Position numbers and translations under genes: made by a program
In this document: positions 5,601 through 54,531 of the stretch, in pieces
Layout: every line of letters starts with the position of its first letter
Numbering within the stretch: the stretch's first letter is position 1
The notes under the pieces: generated by a model
Told to the model about the DNA's origin: nothing
Seen by the model: the letters and a program-made list of their open reading frames with translations, nothing else
Database searches by the model: none
Assembly (NCBI GenBank): GCA_964513625.1
Contig: CAZENH010000032.1
Location: 1 to 64,000 of the forward strand
DNA from: an uncultured Myxococcales bacterium
GTDB taxonomy: Bacteria > Myxococcota > B64-G9
Reading direction: 5' to 3'
Length of the DNA stretch: 64,000 nt

Positions 5601-8600
5601 CGCCTTCGATCTTCCGTGCCCTGGCCAGCGCCCGCATGGCCCGGGCCGTCATAACCGGGTCACTCTCGCTCATTTGCCGGTTCAGTGCCCAGCCACCGTC
5701 GGATCTCTGGGTGATTACCAGATGTCTAAGCGCGCGTCTGAGGCGGGCCATTACCATGTCGCGCATAGTGGCATCGGAACTGGGCCCGATCTGATCGAGG
5801 ATATTCAAGGCAACCAGGGCTTCCTCCGGCCGATCGCCGAACAGGAGCGGATCGAGTTCACCCGCCAGGATGATGCGGCTCAGGCGAGCGTCCAGGCGCA
5901 GATCGAGGCGGGCCGAAGACAGGCCCTCGTCAAGCTTCATGGTGCGGCCGGCGCTCTTGGTGAGAAGTCCAGAGGCCAGCACCTGCTCGCGCACGCCGCG
6001 AGGCACGACAGGCAATTCGCGAACTAAATGGTCCGACAGATCGGCGGCGGCGGCCGAAAGCTCAAAGCGCATTTTTCCAGACGAGTTTTTTGGAACGGAC
6101 ACAGACTTGAAAAACACCTCGGCGTTCCCGAGCGAATTGACGGTTAGCACCTTTGAAAATGTTTTTCCGGCGACGGCGAGTTTGACGGTCGCTTCGAGTT
6201 TAACGCGGCTGTCGTTGTACACTCTTGCCGCGGGTTGCAAGCTATCACCTTCTTCCAGCGCTGGAGGCGCGATCAACTCAACCCAGAACGGCCGGCTGGC
6301 CACCAACTGGGTGCGATCCTCACCGAGCTGAGTGTCGCGAGTGACTCCGCGAGTGGTAATTCGCCAGCTGGTCAGGGTGTCGGGCAACCTGAAGGTCACG
6401 TTGGCCACGCCGTCCGGGCCTGTGCGCAGATCGGGAAAGAAAGCCGCTGTTTGGCTGAAATACTTTCGTAGAGCCCCTGCGCCCAGTGCAATGGCTTTGC
6501 CCATGCGCATGTAGGCCTTGCCGCCTGCGCCCCGGCCGTATCCCGCGGCTCCCAGTCCGCCAGCGCCCATACCGTAGCCAACCAAGCCCCCCTGAAGGCT
6601 TTCCGTCTTGGCCATCTTGGAAAAATCGGCGGTGGCTTTTTCGGTCATCTTGCGCCTGCGCGCTCCCAGGGCGGCCATGGCGGCCGAGCCCTCGGTTTCT
6701 TCGACCTCGGCTTTCTCGACCTCGGATGCTTCGACTTCCGGAAATCGGTACCTGTTCGACGAGACGGTCTCAATATCTCCTTCGGGGCGCAATTGCTGGA
6801 AGGTCTCCACCAGGTCTGGCAGGCCCTCCGGGAACACTTTATAAAGGGATTCATCGACGACGGCCACTATCAGGCGCGCATCGATCGGGTGCCCATCGGC
6901 GTCGCGGGCTATCAATGTAAGATTGACTTTGTCTCCCGGACTATAACGCTTGCGATCCGGTCGTACCGTCAAGACCAGCTTGCGCGTCACGCGTACGGAT
7001 CGCGAGACGCTGTAGAGACGATCCTTGTGCATAGCCGAGGCCGAAAGCTGGAAGTTGGGCACCAGCTTCAAAGACAGCGGGATCTCAATCTTGTTCTCAC
7101 CGCGCTTTAGCCTGACGGTGCGGTAGTCGATTATCTGATCAGTTTCGCAAGTCAACAGGACCAGTGCCCGGTCCATGTGGCTGCGGATTGACAGCTTGGC
7201 CGGTGTGCCCATGGTCAGTTCAGTTCGCTCCAGGTCGAGGAAGAATCCCGGCTCGTCCTCCCCGACGGTGTTTACGCCCAGTTCGGCCGTAATTGGATGG
7301 CCGGCCCTGTCATTACCGAAGACCCTTACTATGTGGACTCCCTTGCCGGGAAGGCTGACGGGCAGACGCAGCTTTCCAGACGGCGGCACTTCTATCTTGC
7401 GCTCGAGCACACGCACCTCGGCGTTGGTGCCGGGAAGTCTCTTGACGGCCCGCAAGTTGAGGCTGGCAGTGCTCGGCGAACCGTCCGGGGCGCTTACCGA
7501 GATTCGCAGGTCGAAGGGCTGACCGGCGAAAATCGTCTTCTGCTCGGTCTCGATCGAAATTTTGTAGCCCTCCGCCGCCACCAGGGCGGTTGCCTCTTGC
7601 TGCAGATTGAGGCGCCGCAACTTGATCTGCAGGACGGCCTTGTGGGTCTGTTCCATGGTTCGGGTGGGGAAGGAGAAGCGCACCTGTCCGTTCTCGTCGC
7701 AGGTCGCCTGGAGCCAGACCTGCGCATCATCCAGGCGATAGGTGATTTTCTCGAACGCCGCCGGAGCACCGCTGCGGTGGCGCACGCGAATGACCCCCGC
7801 AAGCGGTTCGCCACGAAAGACCACCGGCCGATCGAAGGAAACCGACAGATCGTAGGCGGGCAGACGGTAGTGCTGTACCCGGAAACTGCCGCCGAAACTG
7901 ACACCTCCGTGAGCGCGCACGCTGATGCCGTAGCGCCCTGGTGCGATGGCCGGATCGAGAGTGATCTTCTTGTGAAACACACCGAATTCATCCAGCTTGG
8001 CCGTCTCCGTGAGCCTGACTTGCGATAGTTGGACCTCGATATGGACACTGTCACCCGGCTGGTATGCGGGCTTTCCCTGTTGGTTCGGGCGATCACGCAC
8101 GATGCCTGCTATCGAGATCTCATCTCCCGGTCGGTAGGCGGGCCTGTCAGTGAAGACGAAGGCGCGCGGGGAGGCGGCCGTTTGAGGTTGCCCGCCCTGG
8201 TAGTCGATGCCTGTCCATGCCAAATGGCCGCCGCGGATCGCAAGCGCACTCAGGCCTTCGTCGGATTCACTCTCGGGCAGGTTGTGTTGCCAGACGCCGT
8301 CTTTGCCGGTCTTGCCCTCGGCGACGATCCTTTTTCCATCGGCGACGATGATGCGCACGTCTCCCAAGGGACGTGTTTTCTTCATGTCCTGGCTGAAAAC
8401 GAAAATCTTGCCCGGGCCGCTTTTTATGATCATACCCAGGTCGGAGACCACAACGGCGGTAGTGGCTTCTAACTTGCCGGCTGTCAGATGTGCCAGGTAG
8501 AGACCGGGTGAAGTGATCTTCAGAGGTACTTTCTGAGTGATGCGTATGTGCTTGCGATAATCGGTCACCGGCACATCGAAGGTTGTGTCGGGAGCGCACA

Positions 8601-18786: not shown

Positions 18787-21700
18787 ATGGAATTCGCTAT
18801 TGACGCTGCCAGGCTCTGGAGATCATCGGGTGCCGTGCTGGTGTTGATTGCCGGCTTGTTGGCCTGTGGTCGGCAGGGTTACCAACCGCAAGTGACTTCC
18901 TGCGACGGTGTCGACTGCTCGGGGCACGGAGATTGCGTCGAGGCTGACGGGAAGGCGGTTTGCATCTGCGACAATGGCTACCGGGCCGAGGGGCCCGAGT
19001 GCATCAAGGAGTCCACCGATAATCCCTGCCTGGGAGTCACCTGCTCGGGTTACGGCACCTGCGCCGTGCGTGACGAGGAAGCCTGGTGCGTGTGCGCCGA
19101 GGGCTATCATAACGAGGGCCAGACCAACTGCGTAGCCGACGTGCGGCCCTGCCAGGGGGCGGACGGGACCGAGTGCGACGACGGGCAATTCTGCACGGTT
19201 GACGATCGTTGCATGGGCGGGGTGTGCGCGGGCGTGGCCAACGACTGCGACGACGGCAATTCATGCTCGGTGGATACTTGTAACGAGGTTGACGATGTTT
19301 GCATAAACACCCTGGCGCCGGATGGCGTGCCCTGCGATGACGGGGCTTACTGCACGCTGGGCGAGACCTGCTCGGGCGGCACCTGCACCGGCGGTCTTGC
19401 ACGTAACTGCTCGGACGGCAATCCCTGTTCGGCGGATAGCTGTGACGACGAGACGGATTCGTGTATCAATGCCGCCGTCGGCGACGGGACGGCTTGCAAC
19501 GACGGGGCATACTGCACGACCGGCGAGAGTTGTACCGCCGGGGTGTGCGCCGGCGGCTCGCCGATCGATTGCACGGACGGCAACGTGTGCACAAGCGATG
19601 TCTGCGACGAGAGCATCGACGCCTGTGTCAACCCGCCGCTTGTGGACGGGACGCCCTGCGACGACGGAGCCTATTGCACCGTGGGAGACGTCTGCGCCGG
19701 CGGAAGTTGCGTCGGGGCCAGTGCCCGCGATTGCTCCGACGGCGACCAGTGCTCGTCGGACGCCTGCGACGACAACCTCGACCAGTGCGTACACAACGCG
19801 GTGCCCAACGGAACGATTTGTAACGACGGGCAGTTCTGTACCATAGCCGAAATCTGCACGGGAGGCGCTTGCACGGGCGGGCAGGCCCGTGATTGCTCGG
19901 ACGGTAATCCATGCACGATCGATACATGCAACGATTTGGGCGATACCTGTGATCACGCCAACGAGGCCAACGGAACTTCGTGCGACGACGGCCTCTATTG
20001 TACGCTGGGAGACAGTTGTACCAACGGAGTTTGCGGAGGCACGGCCAGGAACTGCGACGACGGAGACGTCTGCACGCTCGACTCGTGCGACGAGGACGGC
20101 GACGCCTGCATCGGCGACACGGCCGCGATGAACGGAGCCGGCTGCGACGACGGGCAATATTGCACGGTGGCAGACACCTGCTCCGGGGGAACCTGCACGG
20201 GCAGCCCCAACCAGTGCGACGACGGCAACGCCTGCACCGCCGACTCCTGCAACGAGGGAAGCAAGCAGTGCGTCAACACGGCGGTCGCCAACGGAGCCGC
20301 TTGCGACGACGGGCAGTACTGCACCGTGGGGGATGTCTGTACCGGTGGAGTTTGCGGCGGCTCTGCGCGTGACTGCACCGACGCCAGCGTCTGCACGGCC
20401 GACAGCTGCAACGAGGTGACCGACAGCTGCAACAACCTGCCGGTGGCCAACGGCACGGCCTGCGACGACGGCCAGTACTGCACAGTGGCCGAGACCTGCA
20501 ACGGGGGAGTGTGCGGGGGCGGGGCAGCCCGGAACTGCTCCGACGGCAACCAGTGTACGGCCGACAGCTGCGACGACGGCATTGACCAGTGCGTCAACCA
20601 GAACGAACCTGCGGGGACGGCCTGTGACGACAATGCTTACTGCACGGTTGGGGAGACCTGCTCGAACGGTTCCTGCTCCGGTGGCTCGTCCCGCAACTGT
20701 GCCGACACCAACGATTGCACGCTGGACGTATGCAACGAGGGCACGGATGCCTGCGACCACCCGGCCGTGGTGGACGGGACACCCTGCGACGACGGGCAGT
20801 ACTGTACCCTGGGAGACAATTGCGCCGGAGGAGTGTGCGGCGGCGCTCCGAACCCGTGCGACGACGGCAACGCCTGTACGGCCGATAACTGCGACGATGT
20901 CAACGACATCTGTGTGGGAACACCGGTAGTGGACGGGACGCCCTGCGACGACGGGCAGTTCTGCACGCTGGGTGAGACGTGCAACTCGGGCGCTTGTTCG
21001 GGCGGCAGTCCGCGCAATTGCTCGGACGGAAACCCCTGCACGGCGGACAGCTGCGACGACGGAGCCAACCAGTGCGTCAACAATCCGGTGGGAAACGGGA
21101 CGCCCTGCGACGACGGGGCCTACTGCACGGAGGGGGAAGCCTGCAACGGCGGAGTGTGCGGGGGCGGCAGCATGCGAGACTGCACCGACGGCGACGTCTG
21201 CACTCAGGACGTGTGCGACGAAGCGGTCGATGCCTGTCTGCACCTGGCGTCAGGTGCGAACGGCACGCCCTGCGACGACGGACAATACTGCACCATGGGA
21301 GACGTGTGTTCCGGTGGCGTTTGCACGGGCAGTGGCGTGCGCGATTGTTCGGACGGGAACGTCTGCACACTTGATAGTTGCAACGACGGGACGAACCAGT
21401 GCGATCATGATGCGGCGGCGGCCAACGGCAATGCCTGCGACGACGGGCAGTTTTGCACGACCGCTGACTCTTGTAGTTCGGGATCTTGCGTGGGTGGACC
21501 AGCGCGCAACTGCTCGGACGGCAACGCCTGTACAACCGATTCATGTAATGAAGGCAGCGACGTATGTGTCAACGACGCCGCTGCGGCCGACGGCAGCGCC
21601 TGCGATGACGGGTCTTACTGCACCCAGGCGACGACCTGTAGCGGCGGGTTTTGCAGCGGGGGCAATCCCAGAAATTGCGCCGATGCGCTGCCCTGCACGG

Positions 21701-24264
21701 CCGACTCGTGCAACGATGTCACCGACCAGTGCGAGCACAATCCGGTGACTGACGGGACGGGCTGCGACGACGGACAGTTCTGCACGGTGGCCGAGAGTTG
21801 CACAGGCGGTGTGTGCGGGGGCGGCAGCCCGCGCAACTGCTCGGACGGCAACCAGTGCACCGCCGACAGTTGTAACGACGGCCTGGATATTTGTGAACAC
21901 GACTCGGTGACGATGAATGGTGCCGGCTGCGATGATGGACAGTACTGCGTTGACGGCGAGACTTGTAATGCGGGCATATGCGGGGGCGGCGGCCCGCGGG
22001 ACTGCTCGGACGGCAACCTGTGCACAGCCGATAGCTGCAACGAAGGGACAAGTTCCTGTGACCACGATGCCGCAGCGATGGACAGCGCGCCATGTGGCAC
22101 CGGCAACTTCTGTTTGATTGGTGAGACCTGCAACTCCGGCGTCTGCGGCGGCGGTTCGGTCAGGCCCTGTGACGACGGCAACCCCTGCACCCAGAACAAC
22201 TGCAACGTCGATCACTGCGACAACCCGGATGTCGCGGACGGAACCGGCTGTCAGGACGGCCTGTTCTGCACCGCCGGCGACAGCTGTTCAGCCGGTGTCT
22301 GCCAGCCCGGGGGCGGAGACCCCTGTAGCGGCAACCCGTGTGCCAATAACTGCGTGGAGGCGACAGACACCTGCGGCGGCTGCGCTCCTGCCGGCACGGT
22401 GTGCTATAGCCCTGTACAGGAAGCGACCTGTGACGGGGCCTGCAATATTACGGAGCTTCTTACCTGCGGTTACGGATGCAACGTCGCCCGCCAGGAGTGC
22501 AACCAGTGTTCACCGAGCACAACCGAGTGCAAGGGAGACGCCGAGTACCTGTGCAACGCCGAGTTCGTCTGCGATGCAGACGGGCTGCTGCAATCCAAGA
22601 CCTGCTGTTTCACCAACCGCTGCGCTTGCGACGGCAGCATGTGTCTCGAGGACCTGTGCGCCGCGGCGCCGGACATGAGCGCCGGAGGCAACCTGTCGGG
22701 CACGACTTGCGACAACGACGATCACATTCCCGGCGACTGTTACCCGGGCGGGGCGGCTTGCAAGTCGGTGGCCGGGGGCGGGGCGCCGGAGGAAATGTTC
22801 CAGTTCACGCTGGACGACGGGACGGGCGATTCGAAGTTCTACACGGTGACGCTGGACAGCGGAACATCGGCGCTGGACACGACGCTCAGGGTGTCGACGA
22901 TCTGTGGTAGCGAGACAGCGCAGGTTCCAACGGCGGACGTGTGTGGAGCGCCCGGAGTGGAGCCCGACTGGGGCTGTTCCGAACAATCCGGGCCGGAGAC
23001 GATGACGCTGTGCGGGCTGCCGGAGGGCTCGTATTACGGAGCGGTGGACAGCCCGGCGGGCGCCTGCGGTAACTACTCGATGGACGTAAGCACAGCGCAG
23101 GTGAACCTCGATACAGGACCGCAGGCCGGGAACATCTCGATGGGCGGGACTTTTGGCGGCAACACCTGCGCGCTTTCGGACAACTTTTCGTACCCCGACA
23201 ACATACTGTGGGGCAAGGGCGGCTGCGGCGACTGTGTCAACCTGGGAGGCGGCAGCTATGACTGTCCCGCCTGCGGGGTGGCGGCGGCGACCGACTGCAC
23301 GCTGTCACCGAACTCGGACCAGGATCGCTGCACCTACAGCGGGGAAGGAAGCAAGGACGCGGTATTCTACCTGGCGCTCGAGTACCAGACGGGCATCGAC
23401 ATCTCGACCGATGGGTCCGACTTCGACACTGTGCTTTATATCATGGAGACCGGGCCGTCCGGGGCCAGCCCTCCCGGGGCGCGCAGGATCTGCAACGACG
23501 ATTGCAAGGTTATCGACGGGCCTTCACACATCCAGACCTCGCTGGCGCCCGGGTTGTACTACGTCTACCTGGACGGAGCCGGGGGGGCCTGCGGCAACTA
23601 CACGCTAAGCGTGATCGTATCACCGGCGGCCCACTGCGAGAACCACGTTTGCGAGGTTCCCTACGAGAGTTGCGCCAAGTGCCCGATAGACTGCACATGT
23701 CCGAACTGCGGGGACGGGACGATCGATCCGGCCGAAGAGTGCGACGACAACAACACCGGCAACGGCGACGGGTGCTCGGACGTATGCGGCATAGAGAATG
23801 GTTACAACTGTGTGGGTGAGCCCAGCCAGTGCGGGGTGCTGGTGTATCAGACATCGAACTGCGCCTGCGCGATACCGGATTGCAGTGCAGGCGGGCCGGT
23901 CGGCTCGGCCTGCGACACCAGCGACTACGGGACGAAGACGGACACTATCAGCGTGCCGGGCTCGTGCACCGTCCTGGACGTGAACGTCGACATGAACATC
24001 AGCCACACCTGGCGAGGGGACCTGTCGATAGATTTGCAGTCGCCGAGTGGCACGACGGTGACGTTAAAGGCGCAGGACGTGGGAGACAGCGGCACCGACG
24101 TGATCGGCAACTTCGACATCAGCCTGCCGGTGGACGGGCCGGGTGCGCTTTCTGACTTCAACGGCGACACCGGCAACGGCAACTGGACGCTGACCATCCA
24201 CGACTGGTGGAAAGGCGACTCGGGCACCCTCAACTCCTGGGGCCTGCACCTGACCTGCCAGTAA
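18787..24264 (+). CDS. Giant secreted cysteine-rich repeat protein (1825 aa) with about 21 tandem ~53-aa repeats, two pre-peptidase-C-terminal-like domains, a Myxococcus cysteine-rich repeat and a C-terminal proprotein convertase P-domain
   Basis: Signal/TM segment near the N-terminus. The composite repeat is CDDGxYCTxGExCxxGxCxGGxxRxC + SDGNxCTxDSCxExxDxCxHxxxxxGTx, where the second half resembles the Dictyostelium CTDC repeat. Two PPC-like modules end in GNYSMDVS and GNYTLSVIV. CPNCGDGTIDPAEECDDNNTGNGDGCSDVC matches a myxo-type disulfide repeat. The final 110 aa is a P-domain (GDLSIDLQSPSGTTVTL...WTLTIHD). Confidence 0.8.
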   Translation: MEFAIDAARLWRSSGAVLVLIAGLLACGRQGYQPQVTSCDGVDCSGHGDCVEADGKAVCICDNGYRAEGPECIKESTDNPCLGVTCSGYGTCAVRDEEAWCVCAEGYHNEGQTNCVADVRPCQGADGTECDDGQFCTVDDRCMGGVCAGVANDCDDGNSCSVDTCNEVDDVCINTLAPDGVPCDDGAYCTLGETCSGGTCTGGLARNCSDGNPCSADSCDDETDSCINAAVGDGTACNDGAYCTTGESCTAGVCAGGSPIDCTDGNVCTSDVCDESIDACVNPPLVDGTPCDDGAYCTVGDVCAGGSCVGASARDCSDGDQCSSDACDDNLDQCVHNAVPNGTICNDGQFCTIAEICTGGACTGGQARDCSDGNPCTIDTCNDLGDTCDHANEANGTSCDDGLYCTLGDSCTNGVCGGTARNCDDGDVCTLDSCDEDGDACIGDTAAMNGAGCDDGQYCTVADTCSGGTCTGSPNQCDDGNACTADSCNEGSKQCVNTAVANGAACDDGQYCTVGDVCTGGVCGGSARDCTDASVCTADSCNEVTDSCNNLPVANGTACDDGQYCTVAETCNGGVCGGGAARNCSDGNQCTADSCDDGIDQCVNQNEPAGTACDDNAYCTVGETCSNGSCSGGSSRNCADTNDCTLDVCNEGTDACDHPAVVDGTPCDDGQYCTLGDNCAGGVCGGAPNPCDDGNACTADNCDDVNDICVGTPVVDGTPCDDGQFCTLGETCNSGACSGGSPRNCSDGNPCTADSCDDGANQCVNNPVGNGTPCDDGAYCTEGEACNGGVCGGGSMRDCTDGDVCTQDVCDEAVDACLHLASGANGTPCDDGQYCTMGDVCSGGVCTGSGVRDCSDGNVCTLDSCNDGTNQCDHDAAAANGNACDDGQFCTTADSCSSGSCVGGPARNCSDGNACTTDSCNEGSDVCVNDAAAADGSACDDGSYCTQATTCSGGFCSGGNPRNCADALPCTADSCNDVTDQCEHNPVTDGTGCDDGQFCTVAESCTGGVCGGGSPRNCSDGNQCTADSCNDGLDICEHDSVTMNGAGCDDGQYCVDGETCNAGICGGGGPRDCSDGNLCTADSCNEGTSSCDHDAAAMDSAPCGTGNFCLIGETCNSGVCGGGSVRPCDDGNPCTQNNCNVDHCDNPDVADGTGCQDGLFCTAGDSCSAGVCQPGGGDPCSGNPCANNCVEATDTCGGCAPAGTVCYSPVQEATCDGACNITELLTCGYGCNVARQECNQCSPSTTECKGDAEYLCNAEFVCDADGLLQSKTCCFTNRCACDGSMCLEDLCAAAPDMSAGGNLSGTTCDNDDHIPGDCYPGGAACKSVAGGGAPEEMFQFTLDDGTGDSKFYTVTLDSGTSALDTTLRVSTICGSETAQVPTADVCGAPGVEPDWGCSEQSGPETMTLCGLPEGSYYGAVDSPAGACGNYSMDVSTAQVNLDTGPQAGNISMGGTFGGNTCALSDNFSYPDNILWGKGGCGDCVNLGGGSYDCPACGVAAATDCTLSPNSDQDRCTYSGEGSKDAVFYLALEYQTGIDISTDGSDFDTVLYIMETGPSGASPPGARRICNDDCKVIDGPSHIQTSLAPGLYYVYLDGAGGACGNYTLSVIVSPAAHCENHVCEVPYESCAKCPIDCTCPNCGDGTIDPAEECDDNNTGNGDGCSDVCGIENGYNCVGEPSQCGVLVYQTSNCACAIPDCSAGGPVGSACDTSDYGTKTDTISVPGSCTVLDVNVDMNISHTWRGDLSIDLQSPSGTTVTLKAQDVGDSGTDVIGNFDISLPVDGPGALSDFNGDTGNGNWTLTIHDWWKGDSGTLNSWGLHLTCQ
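19160..22330 (+). repeat. Tandem array of ~159-165-nt coding repeats (about 21 units) inside the giant Cys-rich gene
   Basis: The motif tgcgacgacgggcagtactgcac recurs at about 20131, 20296, 20458, 20620, 20776, 20941, 21103, 21268, 21433, 21763 and 21922, at roughly 162-nt spacing. Confidence 0.8.
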
Positions 24265-27580: not shown

Positions 27581-29527
27581 ATGAAGAGATGGATTCTAAT
27601 TGGCGTGCTTGCGGTAGGTTGGGCATTTCCGGCCCGGGCGGTGTCCGACTATCCGGTGGATCTGAACGTCAGTCTGGTCAAGCCCTCGAACCGGGATTAT
27701 CTCAATATCGAAAGCTGCGCAGCAGCCGCCGAGACCGAGCTGGAGATCTCGTGGACGTTTGATAGCAGTAGCAACACCGCCTGGGTCGGGGAGCAGGAGG
27801 GCGACGTATTTCTGGCCATAGACGATACTTGCGGCTCGGCCCTGGTCGAGATCGGCAAGGTGTCGGGCCAAGGGGTCGATGTCAGCATCAGCGAGGGACA
27901 GACCAGCGGCACGTTTCCAGTGAGCGGCGACGAGCTTTACCTGAGCGACGTTACCGGCCTCGACTGCGCCACCGAAGACGAGCAAGACTACTATTTCTGC
28001 ATCAAGTGGCAGTATGATGAGCCTACAGGCTTCTACAACTACATCTACAGCGGCGGGACGCCGATTCGTTTCGACACTAAGCCGCCCGGCGCGCCCGCAA
28101 TTACTTCGGTCGATCCGGGCGAGACCAACCTGAAGGTCAGGTGGGAAAAACCGTCGGACGACGACCTCGATAGCTACATCCTCCACTACCGAGAGGAAGG
28201 CACAACTGAAGATCACCAGGCGACCGAGACCAACGGCGAGGCGACCAGCTTTCAGATCACCGGTCTGACCAACGACGTTACCTACGAGGTCTGGATGACG
28301 GCCGTCGACGTCGCCATGAACGAGAGCGAAGACTCGAACACCATGACCGGCACGCCGGAACCGGTGGAAGATTTCTTTGAATACTACCGCGGGCAAGGCG
28401 GGGGCGAAGACGGCGGTTTCTGCTTCGTGGCCACCGCCGCTTACGGTTCTTACCAGGATGCAATGGTAGTGCCCTTGCGCGCCTTCAGGGATAGTGTTTT
28501 GATGCCGACTGCTACGGGACGCGGCCTGGTCGCGGCCTACTATCGTTTCGGCCCTCGTTGGGCGCGGGCTATTCGCGGCTCGGACCTGCACCGCGCCGCA
28601 GCGCGATTATCGCTGGCCCCGCTGGTTGTGGCTGCCCGGGCCGATCTTAGTTTGGGAACCTTTGAGCTATTGGTACTGCTTGCAGCACTATTGATACTCG
28701 GGCTGCTTGGAAAGAAATATTTTCAGAAGATGCGGCGCTCGGCACGCGCTTCGGCGCCTCCGGCTCTTATGGCTTTGATTGCCGCGTTGCTGGTCATGGG
28801 AGTCGGCAGCCGGACCCGGGCGCAGGACAAGTCGCATCCGGGCACCGATTCGGATTCCGGCGAGGCCGTCTCTGGCGGCGTACCGAACATGCAGTTCCAG
28901 GTCCGCTTCGGGCCTTATACGCCGCAGGTCGACAGCGAAAAAGACCTCTCTGGCAAGCCTTTCAAGGAGATCTTCGGCGGCGGTAGCGAGATGCTCTTCG
29001 AGTTGGGTCTCGACTACGAGATCTGGCGCGGCTTCGGAGTGGTGAGCGTCGGCGGCTCATTCGGCTTCGTGCAGTACTTGGGCAAGGGTCGCACACAGAG
29101 CGGCGACAAGAGCAGCGACACCACGGTGTTCAACCTGGTGCCTTTCCGGTTGAATGTCGGATATACCTTCGACAAGCTGATGGACTGGTGGCGTATTCCG
29201 TTCGAGCCGTATGTGGTGGGCGGGCTGGACTACTACGTCTGGTGGGTGCTCGACGGCGTGGGTGACATAGCGTCTTACGAGGACGAGTCCGGGAAATCGT
29301 ACACGGCCCGCGGCGGCATATTCGGGGGACACTTCTCGGTCGGGCTGAAACTGCTGCTGGACGTCCTCGACCAGGAGGCGGCCAGTCACCTCGAAAACCA
29401 GGTCGGAGTAATGAATAGCTTTTTCTTTGCCGAGTACAGCATGTCATGGATCGACCAGTTCGGGGCCTCGGGCCATATGAACGTCGGCGACCAGACCTTC
29501 ATGTTCGGCCTGATGATGGAGTTCTGA
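27581..29527 (+). CDS. Secreted protein: Fn3-like domain, CFxATAAYGS...LRxFRD motif, hydrophobic linker and C-terminal beta-barrel-like domain ending in Phe (autotransporter-like architecture)
   Basis: Signal peptide MKRWILIGVLAVGWAFPARA. Fn3-like segment (LKVRWEKPSDDDLDSYILHY). The motif is CFVATAAYGSYQDAMVVPLRAFRDSVL. Two hydrophobic helices follow. The last ~240 aa have alternating hydrophobic strands with a C-terminal ...FGLMMEF. Confidence 0.6.
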   Translation: MKRWILIGVLAVGWAFPARAVSDYPVDLNVSLVKPSNRDYLNIESCAAAAETELEISWTFDSSSNTAWVGEQEGDVFLAIDDTCGSALVEIGKVSGQGVDVSISEGQTSGTFPVSGDELYLSDVTGLDCATEDEQDYYFCIKWQYDEPTGFYNYIYSGGTPIRFDTKPPGAPAITSVDPGETNLKVRWEKPSDDDLDSYILHYREEGTTEDHQATETNGEATSFQITGLTNDVTYEVWMTAVDVAMNESEDSNTMTGTPEPVEDFFEYYRGQGGGEDGGFCFVATAAYGSYQDAMVVPLRAFRDSVLMPTATGRGLVAAYYRFGPRWARAIRGSDLHRAAARLSLAPLVVAARADLSLGTFELLVLLAALLILGLLGKKYFQKMRRSARASAPPALMALIAALLVMGVGSRTRAQDKSHPGTDSDSGEAVSGGVPNMQFQVRFGPYTPQVDSEKDLSGKPFKEIFGGGSEMLFELGLDYEIWRGFGVVSVGGSFGFVQYLGKGRTQSGDKSSDTTVFNLVPFRLNVGYTFDKLMDWWRIPFEPYVVGGLDYYVWWVLDGVGDIASYEDESGKSYTARGGIFGGHFSVGLKLLLDVLDQEAASHLENQVGVMNSFFFAEYSMSWIDQFGASGHMNVGDQTFMFGLMMEF

Positions 29528-42234: not shown

Positions 42235-43737
42235 ATGGTGGAGCTGAGACAAGTCCTGTCGCTGAAGCAGACCCTGCAACTGGTGATGACTCCCCAGTTG
42301 CAACAAGCCATCAAGCTTCTGCAGCTGTCACGGCTCGAACTCAATGACCTGGTCAACACCGAGATGCTCGAGAACCCCGTGCTCGAGGATGTGCCCGAGG
42401 TCCCGCCAGCCGAGGATACGGCCTCAACCTCCGATGAACGCCAAAATGCTGTAGATGAGAAGATCCAGGATCGTCTCGAACGCACCGAAAGAACGGAAGA
42501 AGTAAAGGGCGGCGAAGGCGCCAACGAGATCGACTGGGAGAAGTACCTGGAGAATTATTCTTCTTATTATCCAGGCGGCGGCCCGCGCGAACGACCCAAT
42601 GAAGATTTACCATCCTACGAGGCGGTATATTCCAAGAAGCCTTCGCTGACCGACCATTTATTGTGGCAGCTACGTCTATCGTCACTCGATGAATACGAGC
42701 AGGATATCGGTGCGCAGATCATCCTCAACCTCAACTCGGACGGTTATCTGGTGGCGGACGACGAAGACCGGCTGGCCGGCAAGACTGCCACGCAATGCAT
42801 CGCAGATTCGTTGGAGATTGAGCAGCAAGAAGTCGAGCGGGTTCTGAAGACCGTGCAGAACTTCGATCCGGTTGGCATCGGTGCACGAGATTTGAAGGAA
42901 TCGTTGCTCATACAGGCAAGACATCTGCAAGTGGAGAATGGCCTGGTATACGCCATAATCGAATCTCATCTTCCGTTTGTTGAGCGTAAGAACTTCCAAG
43001 CCATCGCCCGCGCACTGAAGGTCTCCAAGGACGAGGTCATAGACGCGGTGCGAATTATCTCGCAATTAGAGCCGCGCCCCGGACGGGTTTATTCAGAAGA
43101 GAAACCGCAATACATCACACCGGATATTTTTGTCTACCGCCTGGTTGACGAGTACGTCATCGTTCTCAACGAAGACGGACTGCCAAAACTCAGGATCAGC
43201 CCTTACTATAGACGGACTCTGAGCCAGGCTTCTAGAGGCGGCGAAACTCACAACTACATTCAGGATAAGCTGCGTTCGGCGGTTTGGCTTATTCGCAGCA
43301 TTCACCAGCGCCAGCGAACCATCTACCGAGTAACCGAAAGCATCGTGAAATTCCAACGGGAATTCTTCGACAAGGGTATCTCCTTCCTGAAACCTCTGGT
43401 GCTCAGGGATGTCGCTGAAGACCTGGGATTGCATGAATCGACGGTCAGCCGTGTGACGACGAACAAGTACGTGCATACGCCCCAGGGAATATTCGAGCTG
43501 AAATATTTCTTCAACTCCGGCATCAGCCGGGTGAACGGAGACGACGTTGCCTCGGAGTCGGTCAAGGATCGTATCAGACACATCGTGTCCGAGGAAGATC
43601 CGCAGAAACCGCTCAGCGATCGTGAGATTGTGGCCATGCTCAAGGAGCAAAACATCGACATAGCCAGGAGAACCGTTGCAAAGTACAGAGAAATGCTAGG
43701 CATTCTGCCTTCAGGTAAACGCAAAAAAATGTTCTGA
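42235..43737 (+). CDS. rpoN: RNA polymerase sigma-54 factor
   Basis: N-terminal region I (LQLVMTPQLQQAIKLLQLSRLEL) and the C-terminal RpoN box (ARRTVAKYREMLGI). Confidence 0.92.
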   Translation: MVELRQVLSLKQTLQLVMTPQLQQAIKLLQLSRLELNDLVNTEMLENPVLEDVPEVPPAEDTASTSDERQNAVDEKIQDRLERTERTEEVKGGEGANEIDWEKYLENYSSYYPGGGPRERPNEDLPSYEAVYSKKPSLTDHLLWQLRLSSLDEYEQDIGAQIILNLNSDGYLVADDEDRLAGKTATQCIADSLEIEQQEVERVLKTVQNFDPVGIGARDLKESLLIQARHLQVENGLVYAIIESHLPFVERKNFQAIARALKVSKDEVIDAVRIISQLEPRPGRVYSEEKPQYITPDIFVYRLVDEYVIVLNEDGLPKLRISPYYRRTLSQASRGGETHNYIQDKLRSAVWLIRSIHQRQRTIYRVTESIVKFQREFFDKGISFLKPLVLRDVAEDLGLHESTVSRVTTNKYVHTPQGIFELKYFFNSGISRVNGDDVASESVKDRIRHIVSEEDPQKPLSDREIVAMLKEQNIDIARRTVAKYREMLGILPSGKRKKMF

Positions 43738-49738: not shown

Positions 49739-50554
49739 ATGAGCATTTTTCAGGGAATTGTCCTCGGGCTGGTGCAAGGTCTGAGTGAGTTCCTGCCCAT
49801 TTCCTCGACGGCTCACCTGCGGATAGTGCCGGCCTTGGCCGGCTGGCCGGATCCCGGAGCGGCTTTCTCGGCCGTCGTTCAACTAGGTACGCTGGCAGCG
49901 GTCCTGGTCTACTTTGCCAAAGATCTCTGGGAGATGGCTCGTGCCTGGGTCACGGGGATAGCCCGCGGTCGGCCCTTCGAGGAACAGCGGGCGCGCATGG
50001 GGTGGATCTTGATCATCGGCACGCTGCCGATCGGCGTTTTGGGATTGCTGTGTGAGCATGCCATAGAGACCAGCCTGCGCTCGCTTGCGGTTGTAGGCGC
50101 GGCTTTGATCGGCCTGGCCCTGCTGTTGGCTCTGGCCGAGGCGCTCGGCAGCCGCACGCGCACACAAGCACAGATCGGCTGGAAAGACGGCTTGCTGATC
50201 GGTCTGGCACAGGCCCTGGCCTTGATACCGGGAGCCTCGCGGTCCGGCGTCACCATTACGGCCGGCCTGTTTGCAGGACTCAAGCGCTCGGATGCGGCTC
50301 GCTTCAGCTTTCTGCTGAGCGTGCCTGCGGTCGCCGCCTCGGGGCTCTACGAGATGTTGAAGCTTTTTAGGGGATCGGTCGGGAGTGTGTCATGGGTGCC
50401 GTTACTTGTCGCAACAGCGGTGGCTGCGATAAGCGGCTATTTCGCGATCGCCGGCCTGATTCGTTTTCTACAGAAGAGATCGACGGCAGTCTTTATCGTC
50501 TACCGCATAGTTTTAGGCGCGGCAATCCTTGGATGGGTGTTGGAATTGTATTGA
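49739..50554 (+). CDS. uppP: Undecaprenyl-diphosphatase
   Basis: GLVQGLSEFLPISSTAHL and 8 TM helices. Confidence 0.9.
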   Translation: MSIFQGIVLGLVQGLSEFLPISSTAHLRIVPALAGWPDPGAAFSAVVQLGTLAAVLVYFAKDLWEMARAWVTGIARGRPFEEQRARMGWILIIGTLPIGVLGLLCEHAIETSLRSLAVVGAALIGLALLLALAEALGSRTRTQAQIGWKDGLLIGLAQALALIPGASRSGVTITAGLFAGLKRSDAARFSFLLSVPAVAASGLYEMLKLFRGSVGSVSWVPLLVATAVAAISGYFAIAGLIRFLQKRSTAVFIVYRIVLGAAILGWVLELY

Positions 50555-50754
50555 AGGCTCATGTTCCTGGTGCACGCAAGATACACGGGTGTATACCTTT
50601 ATAATTCAAACTATTACAAAGACAGACCAGCCGGAATAGCCGATTTTTGAAGCCTCCGGGTTGCAGTCAGGCATGCTTGCCGTGATCCTGGTTGTCCGAC
50701 CGCCGTGTAACGGGCTGGACAAGAAAGGGATTTTACGGTAGTAAGTAAACTTCC

Positions 50755-50770
50755 TGGCACATTATGTGCA
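50755..50770 (+). promoter_or_regulatory. Candidate sigma-54 (-24/-12) promoter TGGCAC-N5-GTGCA
   Basis: cTGGCACattatGTGCAg has exactly 10 nt between GG and GC. It lies 53 nt upstream of the 50823 ATG. Confidence 0.5.
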
Positions 50771-50822
50771 GTGTGTTTGCGACAACCTTATACAAACAAG
50801 TTGTTTTTCAAGGAGGGTTGAG

Positions 50823-52850
50823 ATGAGAAAGCTGGTTACTTTTTTCGTGGTCGGGCTTGTAGCTGCGGCTTTTTACGGTTGCGGTGCCGGCGAGAACGAG
50901 GGGCCCGTGGCGTGTGACAGCCTGCCTGACGGAAAGATCAAGCAGGCCTGCATCGACAAAAGCGCGCCCAAGGCCGATCGCTGGGATTCGCAGAATGACC
51001 CGCAACTTTTCGGGGTCAACCTCGATTACCAGCTTGCCAATTTGCCACGCCAGGGCCGGGTACAGCAGGTAGCCTGGCCGTCCACCTACTGGCCTACCTA
51101 CGAAGATTCGGTCAACGTGCGCTGGCAGGGTCAGAGCAGCCGCTCGCCTCTCGAAAAGTACGACATGGCCTTCAATAACTGGACGCCGCCAGCCGATTTC
51201 GACACTCTCGTGCCATTCAAAGACTGCGCCAACGAATTCGACCAGAAGTACTACGACGAGCTCGGTCCGGCGGCCAAGTACTGGAGTGAAAACCACGGCA
51301 ACAAGGCCATGCGCGACATTTGGAACGACCCCGACGGCAAGTGCGAAGAAGCAATCGAAAGCTGGTGGGGTCTGTGCCACGCCTGGGTACCGGCAGCGAT
51401 TCTCGAACCCGAGCCGCAAAAGGCGGTCACCTACAACGGCGTGACCTTCGAAGTCTCGGACATGAAGGCCCTTTTGATCATGGCCTACAATAACTCGTCT
51501 TCCCGCTTCGTCGGGCGGCGCTGTAATGTGCGCACCGACGAGATTGAGCGCGACGAGTACGGTCGCATCAAGCAGGTCGAGTGCCGCGATTCCAACCCGG
51601 GCACGATGCACCTGATTTTGACAAACCTGATCGGGCGCGACAAGCGCGCCTTCGCCGAAGATCGCACCATGAACTACGAGGTCTGGAACCAGCCGGTGAT
51701 CGGTTACGAGGTCAACTCGATGGACGAAAAGACCGAGGATGAGGCAGCCAAGCTGATCGATCCCAATTGTACAAGCCCCTGCGAGTACACCTGGAACACG
51801 GATGCCAAGGGCTTCTACCAGGTTGCGACCGATGTCCACTACGTCACCGAGTCGTCACCGGACACGGTGCCCAAGATCCCGCAGATCGACAGCTACACTC
51901 GAACTGATCACTACGGCTACATCCTCGAACTCGACGGCGACGGCGCGATTATCGGCGGCGAGTGGCTCACGACCAGTGGCGGCTCGTATCCCTCGCGCTT
52001 CAGCAGCCAAATGGCGCACCCCGACTTCTTCTGGCTTCCGCTGCGGGCAGGCTACGCCACCAACCGCAACGCCAGCCTGCAAAAGATCGAGATGCTGGTC
52101 AGGATGAGCCAGGAGGCTCAGCCGAGCCCCGACGGCGACGCCAAGGTATACAAGTCCGACGCGCAGGTCAGCATCCCGGACAACGACAAGGCAGGGGCAA
52201 CCGCCTCGATCGACGTCGGCGACGATCTGACCATCGGCTCGATCAAGGTCACCGTCAACATCACCCACACTTATATCGGTGACTTGACCTTGACGCTCAG
52301 GCACGATGGAAAGGACGTCGAGTTGCAGAAGAACGCCGGGGGCAGCACGGCAAACATCAACAAGACCTTTGAGGTTACTGACTTCAGCGGTTCGGCCAGC
52401 GGCACCTGGGATCTGATTGTGGTCGACAATGCATCCAGGGACACCGGCACCATCGATTCATTCGAACTGGCCGTGATCGAGTCCGGCGGCTCCAGCGGCA
52501 CGGGAGAGTCTTTTGTGAGCAGCGACGCTCTCAGCGTACCCGACAACGACGCCAACGGCGTGCTGAGCACGCTCGACGTTCCGGGCTCCGGCGCGATAAA
52601 GTCCGTAAAGGTGGAGCTGAACGTCAGCCACACCTGGATAAGCGATCTGAAGATCGAGCTTCGGCACGGAACCGGCACCTCGATGCTGCACAATCGCGAG
52701 GGTGACGACTCGGACAACATTGAAAAGACCTACGACGTGGACGAGTTCAACGGAGCGGACAGCGGCGGCGAATGGGAGCTGTGGATCTCCGACAACGCCG
52801 GCCAGGACGTCGGAACGCTCAACTCCTGGAAACTGACCATCGAACGCTGA
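50823..52850 (+). CDS. Secreted lipoprotein with unknown N-terminal ~420-aa domain and two C-terminal proprotein-convertase P-domains
   Basis: AAGGAGGG RBS; lipobox AAFYGCGAG. The N-terminal domain contains WWGLCHAW and downstream His residues, a possible Cys/His catalytic pair. Two P-domain modules end in GDLTLTLRHDGKDVEL...GTWDLIVVDN and SDLKIELRHGTGTSML...GEWELWISDN. Confidence 0.7.
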   Translation: MRKLVTFFVVGLVAAAFYGCGAGENEGPVACDSLPDGKIKQACIDKSAPKADRWDSQNDPQLFGVNLDYQLANLPRQGRVQQVAWPSTYWPTYEDSVNVRWQGQSSRSPLEKYDMAFNNWTPPADFDTLVPFKDCANEFDQKYYDELGPAAKYWSENHGNKAMRDIWNDPDGKCEEAIESWWGLCHAWVPAAILEPEPQKAVTYNGVTFEVSDMKALLIMAYNNSSSRFVGRRCNVRTDEIERDEYGRIKQVECRDSNPGTMHLILTNLIGRDKRAFAEDRTMNYEVWNQPVIGYEVNSMDEKTEDEAAKLIDPNCTSPCEYTWNTDAKGFYQVATDVHYVTESSPDTVPKIPQIDSYTRTDHYGYILELDGDGAIIGGEWLTTSGGSYPSRFSSQMAHPDFFWLPLRAGYATNRNASLQKIEMLVRMSQEAQPSPDGDAKVYKSDAQVSIPDNDKAGATASIDVGDDLTIGSIKVTVNITHTYIGDLTLTLRHDGKDVELQKNAGGSTANINKTFEVTDFSGSASGTWDLIVVDNASRDTGTIDSFELAVIESGGSSGTGESFVSSDALSVPDNDANGVLSTLDVPGSGAIKSVKVELNVSHTWISDLKIELRHGTGTSMLHNREGDDSDNIEKTYDVDEFNGADSGGEWELWISDNAGQDVGTLNSWKLTIER

Positions 52851-52860
52851 CGACCCGACC

Positions 52861-54531
52861 TCAGTAGCGGAAAGTCGATCCGCCGATAAACTCCCGCAAG
52901 ATCGAGTTTTGCGGGACCGCGTCGGGGAAGATCCCCACGAACAACGACAAGAACTTCATCATCCGGTGGATGTCCGGGTAGGCCGGGTCATCCTGGGGGA
53001 CCTCCAGCAGGAAGCGCTCGGCGTAGATCTTGAGCACCGCGGTTTCGTAGGGCAGGGCGCTGTTGAACATGTCGTCGGCCGACTCCTGGAATGGATAGAT
53101 GTCGCGGATCTCGCCACGCCGGACGGAAGACCAGATACGCAGGGTGTCGGAAGCCTTGTAGCCGCGGTAGAGACGATCGCGCACGATGCGCCGCAGCAAG
53201 CGGGCGTCGGTGGTATGGATGCGGTTTGAGTCGTCGAGGCACAACTGGGTCAGGGCCGAGACGTATACCTTGTACTTGGCATCGGGCGGGATCTGGCTGG
53301 TGAGCCTGTCGTTCAGGCCGTGAATGCCTTCGATGATCAACACGTCCTGAGGGGCCAGACGCATCGGCACCCACTTTTGCTCAGGTTGTCTCATGCCGGT
53401 GCCGAAATTGAAGCGCGGCATGTGCACCTCTCGTCCGGCCAGCAGGGACACCAGTTGCTCGTTGAACAGTTCGACATCGATGGCGTCGATTGACTCGAAA
53501 TCGTATTCGCCTCTCTCGTCAAGCGGAGTGTCCTCCCGGTTGACATAGTAGTTGTCAATCGACAAACCTATCGGCGCCAAACCGTTGACCTCCAGTTGTA
53601 CCGACAGGCGCTTGAGGAAAGTCGTCTTGCCCGAGCCCGACGGTCCGGCAATCAAGACCATGCGGGTGTGATCTCTCTTTTTTGCTATGGCGTCCGCGAT
53701 CTCGGTGATTCTCTTCTCGTGCATGCCTTCCGAGACGCGAATCAGCTGGTTGATGCCGCCGTGGGTGCAAAGTTTATTCAGTTCTCCCACGTCGCCGACT
53801 CCCAGGGTGCGGTTACGCTCCTTGCTCTGGCGATGAATGGTGAACAGCTTGGTCTGGTTCTTTGGCGGCTTGTCCAGTGCCTTGTGGTTTGCCGGCGAAG
53901 GAAAGCGCAGCACCAGCCCTGGCGGGTAGTGAGCAACACCGAAATGCGTAACGAAGCCCGTCGAAGGAGGCACCGGTCCGTGCAAGATGTCCAGTGTCTG
54001 GCCGAGACGAACCAGGCGGATATTCTCATGCCAGAACGTCTCGAGCAGAGCCACGCGATCGTTCAGACCGAGTTGGGTAAAGCGCCTGATTGCCTCCTGC
54101 ACCCCGCAGCGCTCGCGATCGAAAGGCGTGTCGGCAGCGGTGAGCTTTTGCATCTCGTCGCGGATGGCGTCTAGGTGTTTGGTGTTAATACCGGGCAGGC
54201 CGTTGAGATCGAAAAAGTAGCCGTCACCCAGCGACTGTCCGACGACCAGGCGCACTTCGGGAAAAAGAATCCGAGTCGCTTCGCGCAGCATTAAAATACA
54301 GCCACGCCGGTAAATCTCCAGGCCGGCATCGGTGTCTAGCGAAACCAGGCGCACCCTGGCTCCTTCGTGTAGGGCGTTGTCGAGCGAAACCAGGCGATTA
54401 TTGACTAAAGCGCCAATCGGGCGGGACAGTCCGAAGTCGGGCGCGATCTGCTGGGCGACCAGGGCCAGGGTAGTAGTGGACTCGGGAACCTTTAGCTGCT
54501 TGCCCTCGAGTTCGATCTGGATCGTTTTCAT
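52861..54531 (-). CDS. ThrRS-like TGS domain fused to a uridine-kinase/phosphoribulokinase-family P-loop kinase
   Basis: The N-terminal TGS beta-grasp (MKTIQIELEGKQLKV...VRLVSLDTD) is followed by Walker A VLIAGPSGSGKTTFLKRL and PRK/UDK-like conservation. Confidence 0.65.
   Translation of the reverse strand: MKTIQIELEGKQLKVPESTTTLALVAQQIAPDFGLSRPIGALVNNRLVSLDNALHEGARVRLVSLDTDAGLEIYRRGCILMLREATRILFPEVRLVVGQSLGDGYFFDLNGLPGINTKHLDAIRDEMQKLTAADTPFDRERCGVQEAIRRFTQLGLNDRVALLETFWHENIRLVRLGQTLDILHGPVPPSTGFVTHFGVAHYPPGLVLRFPSPANHKALDKPPKNQTKLFTIHRQSKERNRTLGVGDVGELNKLCTHGGINQLIRVSEGMHEKRITEIADAIAKKRDHTRMVLIAGPSGSGKTTFLKRLSVQLEVNGLAPIGLSIDNYYVNREDTPLDERGEYDFESIDAIDVELFNEQLVSLLAGREVHMPRFNFGTGMRQPEQKWVPMRLAPQDVLIIEGIHGLNDRLTSQIPPDAKYKVYVSALTQLCLDDSNRIHTTDARLLRRIVRDRLYRGYKASDTLRIWSSVRRGEIRDIYPFQESADDMFNSALPYETAVLKIYAERFLLEVPQDDPAYPDIHRMMKFLSLFVGIFPDAVPQNSILREFIGGSTFRY

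Follow-up and report, generated by a model that had tools for sequence, protein, structure and literature searches.

A contig of an uncultured Myxococcales bacterium (CAZENH010000032.1; its positions 1 to 64,000 on the forward strand, 64,000 nucleotides (nt), are called the window in the following) encodes a lipoprotein with a catalytic domain that belongs to the family of the transglutaminase GP42 from the oomycete Phytophthora sojae. GP42 is a Ca2+-dependent transglutaminase and the source of the elicitor Pep-13. The gene is preceded by a −24/−12 element of the type used by sigma-54, and such an element also stands in front of about two-thirds of the homologous genes of other uncultured bacteria. 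The product is probably a Sec-exported, lipid-anchored transglutaminase of the GP42 family with two P-domains at its C-terminus, which would be transcribed from a sigma-54 promoter of its own. The coordinates of all features are collected in Table 1.

The GP42-type domain and its lipoprotein frame

The N-terminal part of the protein had been taken for a novel domain in a sequence-only reading of the window. A profile search instead assigns it to the Pfam family PF16683 (TGase_elicitor) with E=8e-75 and 252 bits against a cut-off of 25, and residues 61-429 span the profile positions 7-358 of 361. The sole sequence match in the Protein Data Bank (PDB) is 3TW5, the solved structure of the P. sojae GP42 transglutaminase (E=2e-52), and BLASTP against the GP42 segment gives 35% identity over 372 amino acids (aa). 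A scan of the lipoprotein against NCBIfam matched no family. An AlphaFold model built on 48 homologues reached a predicted local distance difference test (pLDDT) value of 82 and a predicted template modelling score of 0.79, with residues 1-51 disordered. In a Foldseek search the best PDB match of this predicted model was the crystal structure 3TW5_A (E=6e-24, template modelling score 0.76 normalised to the target). By sequence as well as by fold, the domain is thus a GP42-type transglutaminase domain.

GP42 has been placed in the papain-like superfamily, with an unusual active site in which the histidine directly follows the cysteine ('CH' motif) and interacts with an asparagine on a beta-strand or an aspartate on a non-core helix (PMC10318531). 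In the lipoprotein the motif WWGLCHAW (residues 181-188) aligns on WFGISHAW of the 3TW5 chain; C185-H186 stand opposite the Ser-His pair, and the cysteine occupies the position which is mutated in GP42 (C290S). The earlier proposal that the cysteine of GLCHAW is the nucleophile of a papain-like site is therefore borne out. The histidine residues further downstream, which had been offered as catalytic partners, have to give way to the adjacent His186. C185 opens the helix 185-194 in the model, and Asp256 stands at the N-terminal end of the helix 259-272. All four residues C185, H186, D256 and N289 are invariant in the 48 close homologues (alignment A1). Among 144 representatives of the family the four residues are conserved in 88-97%; the counts are 141/145 for C185, 128/145 for H186, 139/149 for D256, 145/149 for N289 and 143/149 for the neighbouring Trp288. 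D256 and N289 are conserved and positioned in agreement with that secondary description of GP42 (PMC10318531), and Asp256 would be the probable catalytic aspartate. The papain-related active site most likely consists of the neighbouring residues Cys185 and His186, with Asp256 and Asn289 in a supporting role. The asparagine belongs to the segment VWNQPVIGYEVNS, which is aligned to EVWNQPVRGFKVYE of GP42. Compared with the plant immune elicitor Pep-13 itself (VWNQPVRGFKVYE), 8 of the 13 residues are identical, the W-N-Q-P core included.

The N-terminus of the protein reads MRKLVTFFVVGLVAAAFYG|C and is that of a bacterial lipoprotein, i.e. a signal peptide which ends in a lipobox with an invariant cysteine (Cys20, kept in all 48 homologues). 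The phenylalanine and tyrosine at −3 and −2 are atypical; the homologues are canonical (LAGC, VAGC, LSGC), and nearly all of them have a lipobox of the form L/A-x-G/A-C. Nine cysteines are present in the mature protein, which would give four possible disulfide pairs in addition to the free catalytic C185 and fits an exported protein. Its location is probably the outer membrane or the cell surface.

In the last ~230 aa PF01483 reaches 118 bits across two stretches, and the Foldseek search paired the C-terminal domains of the model with P-domains of furin and of the Aeromonas ASP protease. Together with the Cys20 lipobox this bears out the earlier reading of the gene product, a lipoprotein with P-domains in tandem. 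Their role is probably to stabilise the catalytic domain or to bind a target. A proprotein convertase of the subtilisin/kexin type was considered as well and rejected, as Pfam shows only PF16683 and PF01483 and no Peptidase_S8 domain. The name 'subtilisin-like proprotein convertase family protein', which is given to homologues automatically, is misleading because the S8 domain is absent.

A P-domain also ends the giant protein encoded at 18787-24264 (1825 aa), as the sequence-only reading had stated, and a functional link had been proposed from it: the lipoprotein would be a novel papain-fold processing enzyme with the giant protein as its substrate or scaffold. The giant protein, too, is a lipoprotein (LLAC|G); it carries EGF-like Cys-rich repeats in addition to its single terminal P-domain; its only other Pfam signal is a weak Dicty_CTDC match below the cut-off. 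Both proteins are thus lipoproteins ending in P-domains, and the guess about the nucleophile was correct. However, the catalytic domain belongs to a known family, the two genes are 26 kb apart, no good sigma-54 element lies upstream of the giant gene, and no conserved co-location of the two genes was seen in the homologous loci examined. The P-domain, the sole common feature claimed for the link, is only 32% identical between the two proteins. Moreover, the nearest relatives of the tandem P-domain module are found on a wide variety of enzymes in Acidobacteria, Nitrospiria, actinomycetes, Alteromonas and Myxococcota. Since the module is attached to many unrelated enzymes across phyla, its presence in both proteins is not evidence of a functional link; the link was rejected, and a processing enzyme for the giant protein is hardly credible.

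The sigma-54 promoter element in the window and in homologous loci

The element upstream of the lipoprotein gene, TGGCACATTATGTGCA, was found as the sequence-only reading had described it, namely as TGGCAC-N5-GTGCA with exact GG-N10-GC spacing (GG at 50756-57, GC at 50768-69). It is intergenic, lies on the coding strand and ends 52 nt before the ATG at 50823. The single mismatch concerns the TTGCW block, which here begins with G instead of T (about −15, if C50769 is taken as −12). The score is 14.9 of 18.3 bits on a position weight matrix (PWM) which is approximate, its frequencies following the published consensus. Transcription would start near 50781, with a 5′ untranslated region (5′ UTR) of about 42 nt. 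With at most one mismatch allowed, four matches occur in the window where 2.28 would be expected, and in 19 of 100 shuffles the number is four or more. Within the window alone the motif is, given its position, suggestive. A scan of the region for sigma-70 promoters found none.

The comparison between genomes is convincing. Homologous loci were gathered from genome and metagenome collections, and a stretch of 150 nt in front of every start codon was scored on the coding strand with a threshold of at least 12 bits. Upstream of 67 non-redundant homologues with 35-89% identity, 67% (46/67) carry a match at this threshold and 55% at 13.5 bits or more. The controls gave 3% on the reverse strand of the same upstream regions, 1.1% in random windows from the same loci, 0.7% in shuffled upstream regions and 1.7% upstream of 181 neighbouring genes, all at 12 bits or more. 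The distance from motif to start codon has a median of 44 nt and an interquartile range of 38-52 (47 motif-bearing sequences), and all seven loci with at least 55% identity carry the element. The genes upstream are unrelated in most loci, and therefore the element travels with the transglutaminase gene. On this strong comparative evidence the earlier sigma-54 promoter reading holds: the element is real and recurs in about two-thirds of the relatives, and the lipoprotein gene would be sigma-54 dependent.

The same comparison bears on a different explanation, according to which the −24/−12 look-alike is a chance match, a palindromic repressor operator or a weak terminator hairpin of uppP, the upstream neighbour, and the gene is driven by read-through from uppP or by an unrecognised sigma-70 promoter. 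It is in keeping with this that the motif count across the window is not above chance, and that the element contains a perfect 6-1-6 palindrome (GCACAT-T-ATGTGC), the core of which was also flagged by a terminator scan (50757-69). Furthermore, uppP is read in the same direction as the lipoprotein gene and is not separated from it by a strong terminator, and some homologues have sigma-70-like sites in place of the motif (L090). However, the GG-N10-GC frame and the TGGCA/TGC bases stand equally far before the start codon in the 46 of 67 loci, behind unrelated upstream genes, compared with 1-3% in the controls. In addition, the orthologues L001, L002 and L003 have kept GG and GC while the surrounding bases have diverged, and the palindrome with its hairpin is lost in them. 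We regard an accidental or repressor-type origin of the element as very improbable.

The homologue in L090 (about 7880-8000) without a sigma-54 element has the sigma-70-like sequence TTGACT-N17-TACAAT, which suggests that promoter replacement has occurred within the family. In the window itself the best sigma-54-like element lies elsewhere, at 27516-31 on the plus strand (TGGCACGTTCCTTGCG, 16.0 bits), 49 nt before the ATG of a gene for a secreted fibronectin-III protein (open reading frame (ORF) 27581-29527). Two similar sites, TTGACAAAATGGCAC (27381-95) and GTGACAAAAGGTCAC (27421-35), precede that element by 81-135 nt; they are 40 nt apart and look like an activator-binding pair.

Transcription unit, upstream sites and gene neighbourhood

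The lipoprotein gene is read as starting at the ATG at 50823 and not at the GTG at 50766 given by the mechanical ORF list, because a Shine-Dalgarno sequence precedes the ATG and the orthologues begin with the same residues (MKKLVTFF, MGKLATFF). Downstream, at a distance of only 10 nt, follows a convergent gene for a PRK/uridine-kinase-like protein (52861-54531); the lipoprotein gene is for this reason the last and probably the sole cistron of its transcription unit. An Rfam scan of 50400-53000 (E≤1) gave no match, and no riboswitch or leader RNA was recognised.

Table 1 Features of the lipoprotein gene and its surroundings (positions of the window)
Feature	Position	Strand	Remarks
rpoN (sigma-54)	42235-43737	+	Sigma54_AID, Sigma54_CBD and Sigma54_DBD domains
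uppP	49739-50554	as lipoprotein gene	upstream neighbour
Conserved block GCTGGACAAGAAAGGGATTTT, 21 nt	50714-50734	+	20 nt upstream of the −24 element
Sigma-54 (−24/−12) element TGGCAC-ATTAT-GTGCA	50755-50770	+	one mismatch to TGGCAC-N5-TTGCW
Shine-Dalgarno sequence AAGGAGGG	50810-50817	+	read directly; kept in L002, L003 and L083
Lipoprotein coding sequence, 675 aa	50823-52850	+	GP42-type transglutaminase domain and two P-domains
Signal peptide (residues 1-19) and lipobox Cys20 (50880-50882)	50823-50882	+	hydrophobic N-terminus ending FYG|C
Low-confidence tether, residues 21-60	50883-51002	+	probably flexible; AlphaFold pLDDT <50 for residues 1-51
TGase_elicitor (GP42-type transglutaminase) domain, residues 61-429	51003-52109	+	PF16683, 3TW5, Foldseek
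Catalytic Cys185-His186	51375-51380	+	'CH' motif inside WWGLCHAW
Asp256, probable third catalytic residue	51588-51590	+	helix-cap Asp in RDSNP, aligned to RDLNP of GP42
VWNQPVIGYEVNS, residues 287-299, with Asn289 (51687-51689)	51681-51719	+	counterpart of the Pep-13 segment; Asn289 on a beta-strand
P-domain 1, residues ~445-553	52155-52481	+	first PF01483 stretch; beta-sandwich in the model; Foldseek
P-domain 2, residues ~564-675	52512-52847	+	best PF01483 stretch (residues 593-673); model and Foldseek support

The conserved block upstream of the promoter (GCTGGACAAGAAAsGGATTTT) is nearly invariant: the window and three orthologous loci (89% protein identity for two contigs, 83% for one) vary at a single position of it, and its flanks diverge. 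The homologue in L006 (60% identity) also shows an A/T-rich stretch similar to GGATTTT/CGGTTTTCTGT. The block is a candidate for the site of an activator or of an architectural protein. A k-mer search for an activator site common to the whole family led to a pair of sites, GCCGGCAA and ATCGGC(A/T)A, which is confined to a soil subclade and absent from the clade of the window. The members of this subclade (L048, L055, L062, L070, L075, L080 and others) mostly have a single P-domain. The two sites are in direct orientation with a spacing of 31 nt; they precede the −24 elements by 60-100 nt and often lie inside GATCGATCAGCCGGCAAG. As many as 20 of 47 upstream regions contain their 7-mers, compared with at most 13 in shuffles, and the pair, which resembles a classical activator site, is likely that of the soil subclade.

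A gene for an enhancer-binding protein (EBP), the activator needed by sigma-54 promoters, is adjacent in only 3 of ~87 homologous loci (L061, L063, L085). In L085 (5940-14085) the homologue, 45% identical, is flanked on one side by a PRK-like gene and on the other by a gene for an NtrC-type EBP which abuts a che-like cluster (CheA/W/R/D/B). This homologue is without a canonical sigma-54 element. Nearby a Peptidase_C1 protein is encoded whose tail consists of the same P-domain tandem (40% identical).

Within the window rpoN is located about 7 kb upstream of the lipoprotein gene, as had been noted before, in an ordinary lptB-rpoN-hpf-ptsN-rapZ-HPr-ptsI cluster, after which come metK and uppP; it encodes the trans-acting factor that the promoter would need. 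The 89% orthologue has the same gene order, which is not found in more distant relatives. The vicinity of rpoN is a consequence of the ordinary local gene order, and the meaning that had been attached to it falls away. Only the closest clade keeps uppP upstream and the PRK-like kinase gene downstream, and the neighbourhoods of distant relatives share nothing. The lipoprotein gene is most likely a stand-alone unit with its own sigma-54 promoter.

In comparison with the orthologous loci L002, L003 and L083 (83-89% identity), the intergenic region between uppP and the transglutaminase gene has 153 extra nt (50557-50709). This segment was checked as a repeat or mobile element: no second copy was found in the window or the loci, no notable internal repeats and no Rfam match. 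A stretch around 50683-50712 is faintly similar to the 3′ end of uppP in the orthologues. On the other side of the gene, L083 (12353-21476) and L084 (12398-20945), both with 89% identity, contain large genes for secreted proteins between the transglutaminase and PRK-like genes, which encode PKD/Laminin_G proteins of 2015-2061 aa and an FG-GAP or FGE-sulfatase protein. Because the two genes directly abut in the window, their junction is, judged from these gene orders, a variable insertion spot.

Mode of action, known relatives and biological meaning

Several points weigh against the view that the gene encodes a transglutaminase under sigma-54 control. Concerning the activator, which had been named as a thing to search for, tblastn with an NtrC-type EBP (E≤1e-5) found no EBP gene in the 64-kb window; it may be encoded elsewhere in the genome. 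No upstream activator site is recognisable at the promoter of the window, and the closest orthologues leave only ~40 nt between the stop codon of uppP and the −24 element, so that an activator site there would have to be very close or inside uppP. One-third of the homologous loci lack the motif, among them L085 with its adjacent EBP gene. The consensus of the matches, TGGCACG-N4-nTGCT, is partly circular because the core positions of the PWM selected them; the excess over the controls is not circular. Concerning the enzyme, the assignment of the third catalytic residue follows a secondary description (PMC10318531), transglutaminase and hydrolase chemistry are indistinguishable from the sequence, and a full-text literature search found no assayed bacterial member of the family.

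With the same promoter and the same domains, the protein could accordingly be a hydrolase (protease, deamidase or amidase) that acts on surface, matrix or prey proteins. Most members of the papain-like superfamily to which GP42 belongs are hydrolases (PMC10318531), P-domains are typically joined to proteases, and the Peptidase_C1 protein of L085 bears the same P-domain tail. On the other hand, GP42 is the sole member described as characterised in the literature consulted and is reported as a transglutaminase (PMC4915311), and the unusual CH active site is conserved together with its partner residues. A hydrolase is thus the less probable, although a serious, alternative. By analogy with GP42, the lipoprotein would have transglutaminase chemistry and the corresponding substrates.

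If the gene encodes a transglutaminase under sigma-54 control, the following sequence of events can be proposed. Sigma-54 RNA polymerase would sit at the element as a closed complex until an ATP-hydrolysing EBP, encoded elsewhere, opens the promoter on a signal, and the transcript would begin at the predicted start. The product would be exported, lipidated at Cys20 and held on a tether of ~40 residues, probably at the outer membrane or the cell surface. There Cys185-His186 would form a thioester acyl-enzyme with glutamine side chains of proteins and pass the acyl group to lysine amines (isopeptide cross-link) or to water (deamidation), with the P-domains stabilising the enzyme or binding the target. 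As an outcome, proteins of the cell surface or the matrix would be covalently hardened or remodelled.

The system resembles known ones in its parts. Like GP42 (3TW5), the lipoprotein has a homologous catalytic domain of the same fold, the adjacent Cys-His motif, the RD-NP and VWNQP segments and, as predicted, an extracellular location. In contrast to GP42, which is a cell-wall glycoprotein and has no P-domains, it is bacterial, lipid-anchored, equipped with two C-terminal P-domains and preceded by a sigma-54 promoter; its transglutaminase activity is a predicted one, and its Pep-13 counterpart matches in only 8 of 13 residues. The promoter shares with those of the glnAp2/nifH type the form TGGCAC-N5-xTGCx, the GG/GC spacing, a 5′ UTR of ~40-50 nt, an rpoN gene in the genome and an envelope protein as target. 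It differs from them in the G for T in TTGCW, in the little upstream space of the nearest orthologues and in that neither an EBP nor an upstream activator sequence was found. As in the kexin/furin convertases and the Aeromonas sobria serine protease ASP, a beta-sandwich P-domain follows the catalytic domain, but a subtilisin (S8) domain is missing and the P-domains stand in tandem on a Cys enzyme. The lipoprotein is not a new kind of system; it is an uncharacterised variant, in architecture as well as in regulation, of an enzyme family already known, and its promoter belongs to a known class.

According to the literature (PMC4915311), GP42 cross-links the cell wall of oomycetes, and its homologues are restricted to oomycetes and some marine Vibrio. 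In a full scan with residues 21-440, a limit of E≤1e-3 gave 2,557 cluster representatives and one of E≤1e-10 gave 1,726 (clusters of 50% identity); in the light of these matches the stated restriction is outdated. The members at E≤1e-10 have lengths of 260-1230 aa and varied architectures, and PF16683 combined with a P-domain is present in more than 977 proteins. The few homologues with an organism name come from metagenome-assembled genomes of Myxococcales or 'Deltaproteobacteria', the taxonomy being that of the labels of these genomes. The clade of the window is not the nearest to GP42, other representatives reaching 45-78% identity. In the full-text literature search no paper was found on the bacterial members or their sigma-54 control, and the predicted sigma-54 dependence across the family is newly noticed here.

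A major branch of the family has a distinct build, consisting of a lipid anchor, a tether, the transglutaminase domain and one or two P-domains, and the type of promoter in this P-domain branch implies a tight, signal-dependent on/off control. It is a tentative and rather doubtful extension of these results that the GP42-type transglutaminases form a large bacterial family centred on uncultured Myxococcota-like bacteria, in which the P-domain lipoprotein form is a conserved, activator-gated sigma-54 target that cross-links the surface or the matrix on a specific signal. If this were true, surface or matrix proteins would be cross-linked during, e.g., development, biofilm hardening or predation, and it would reopen the question which bacteria donated GP42 and Pep-13 to the oomycetes. 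Through sigma-54 control it would become directly testable under which conditions, and for what purpose, bacteria would make use of an extracellular protein cross-linker. The regulons of sigma-54 have been found to concern the exterior of the cell, lipoproteins included (Francke et al., PMC3162934), and to this picture of sigma-54 as a regulator of the cell exterior the lipoprotein gene adds a member with comparative support.

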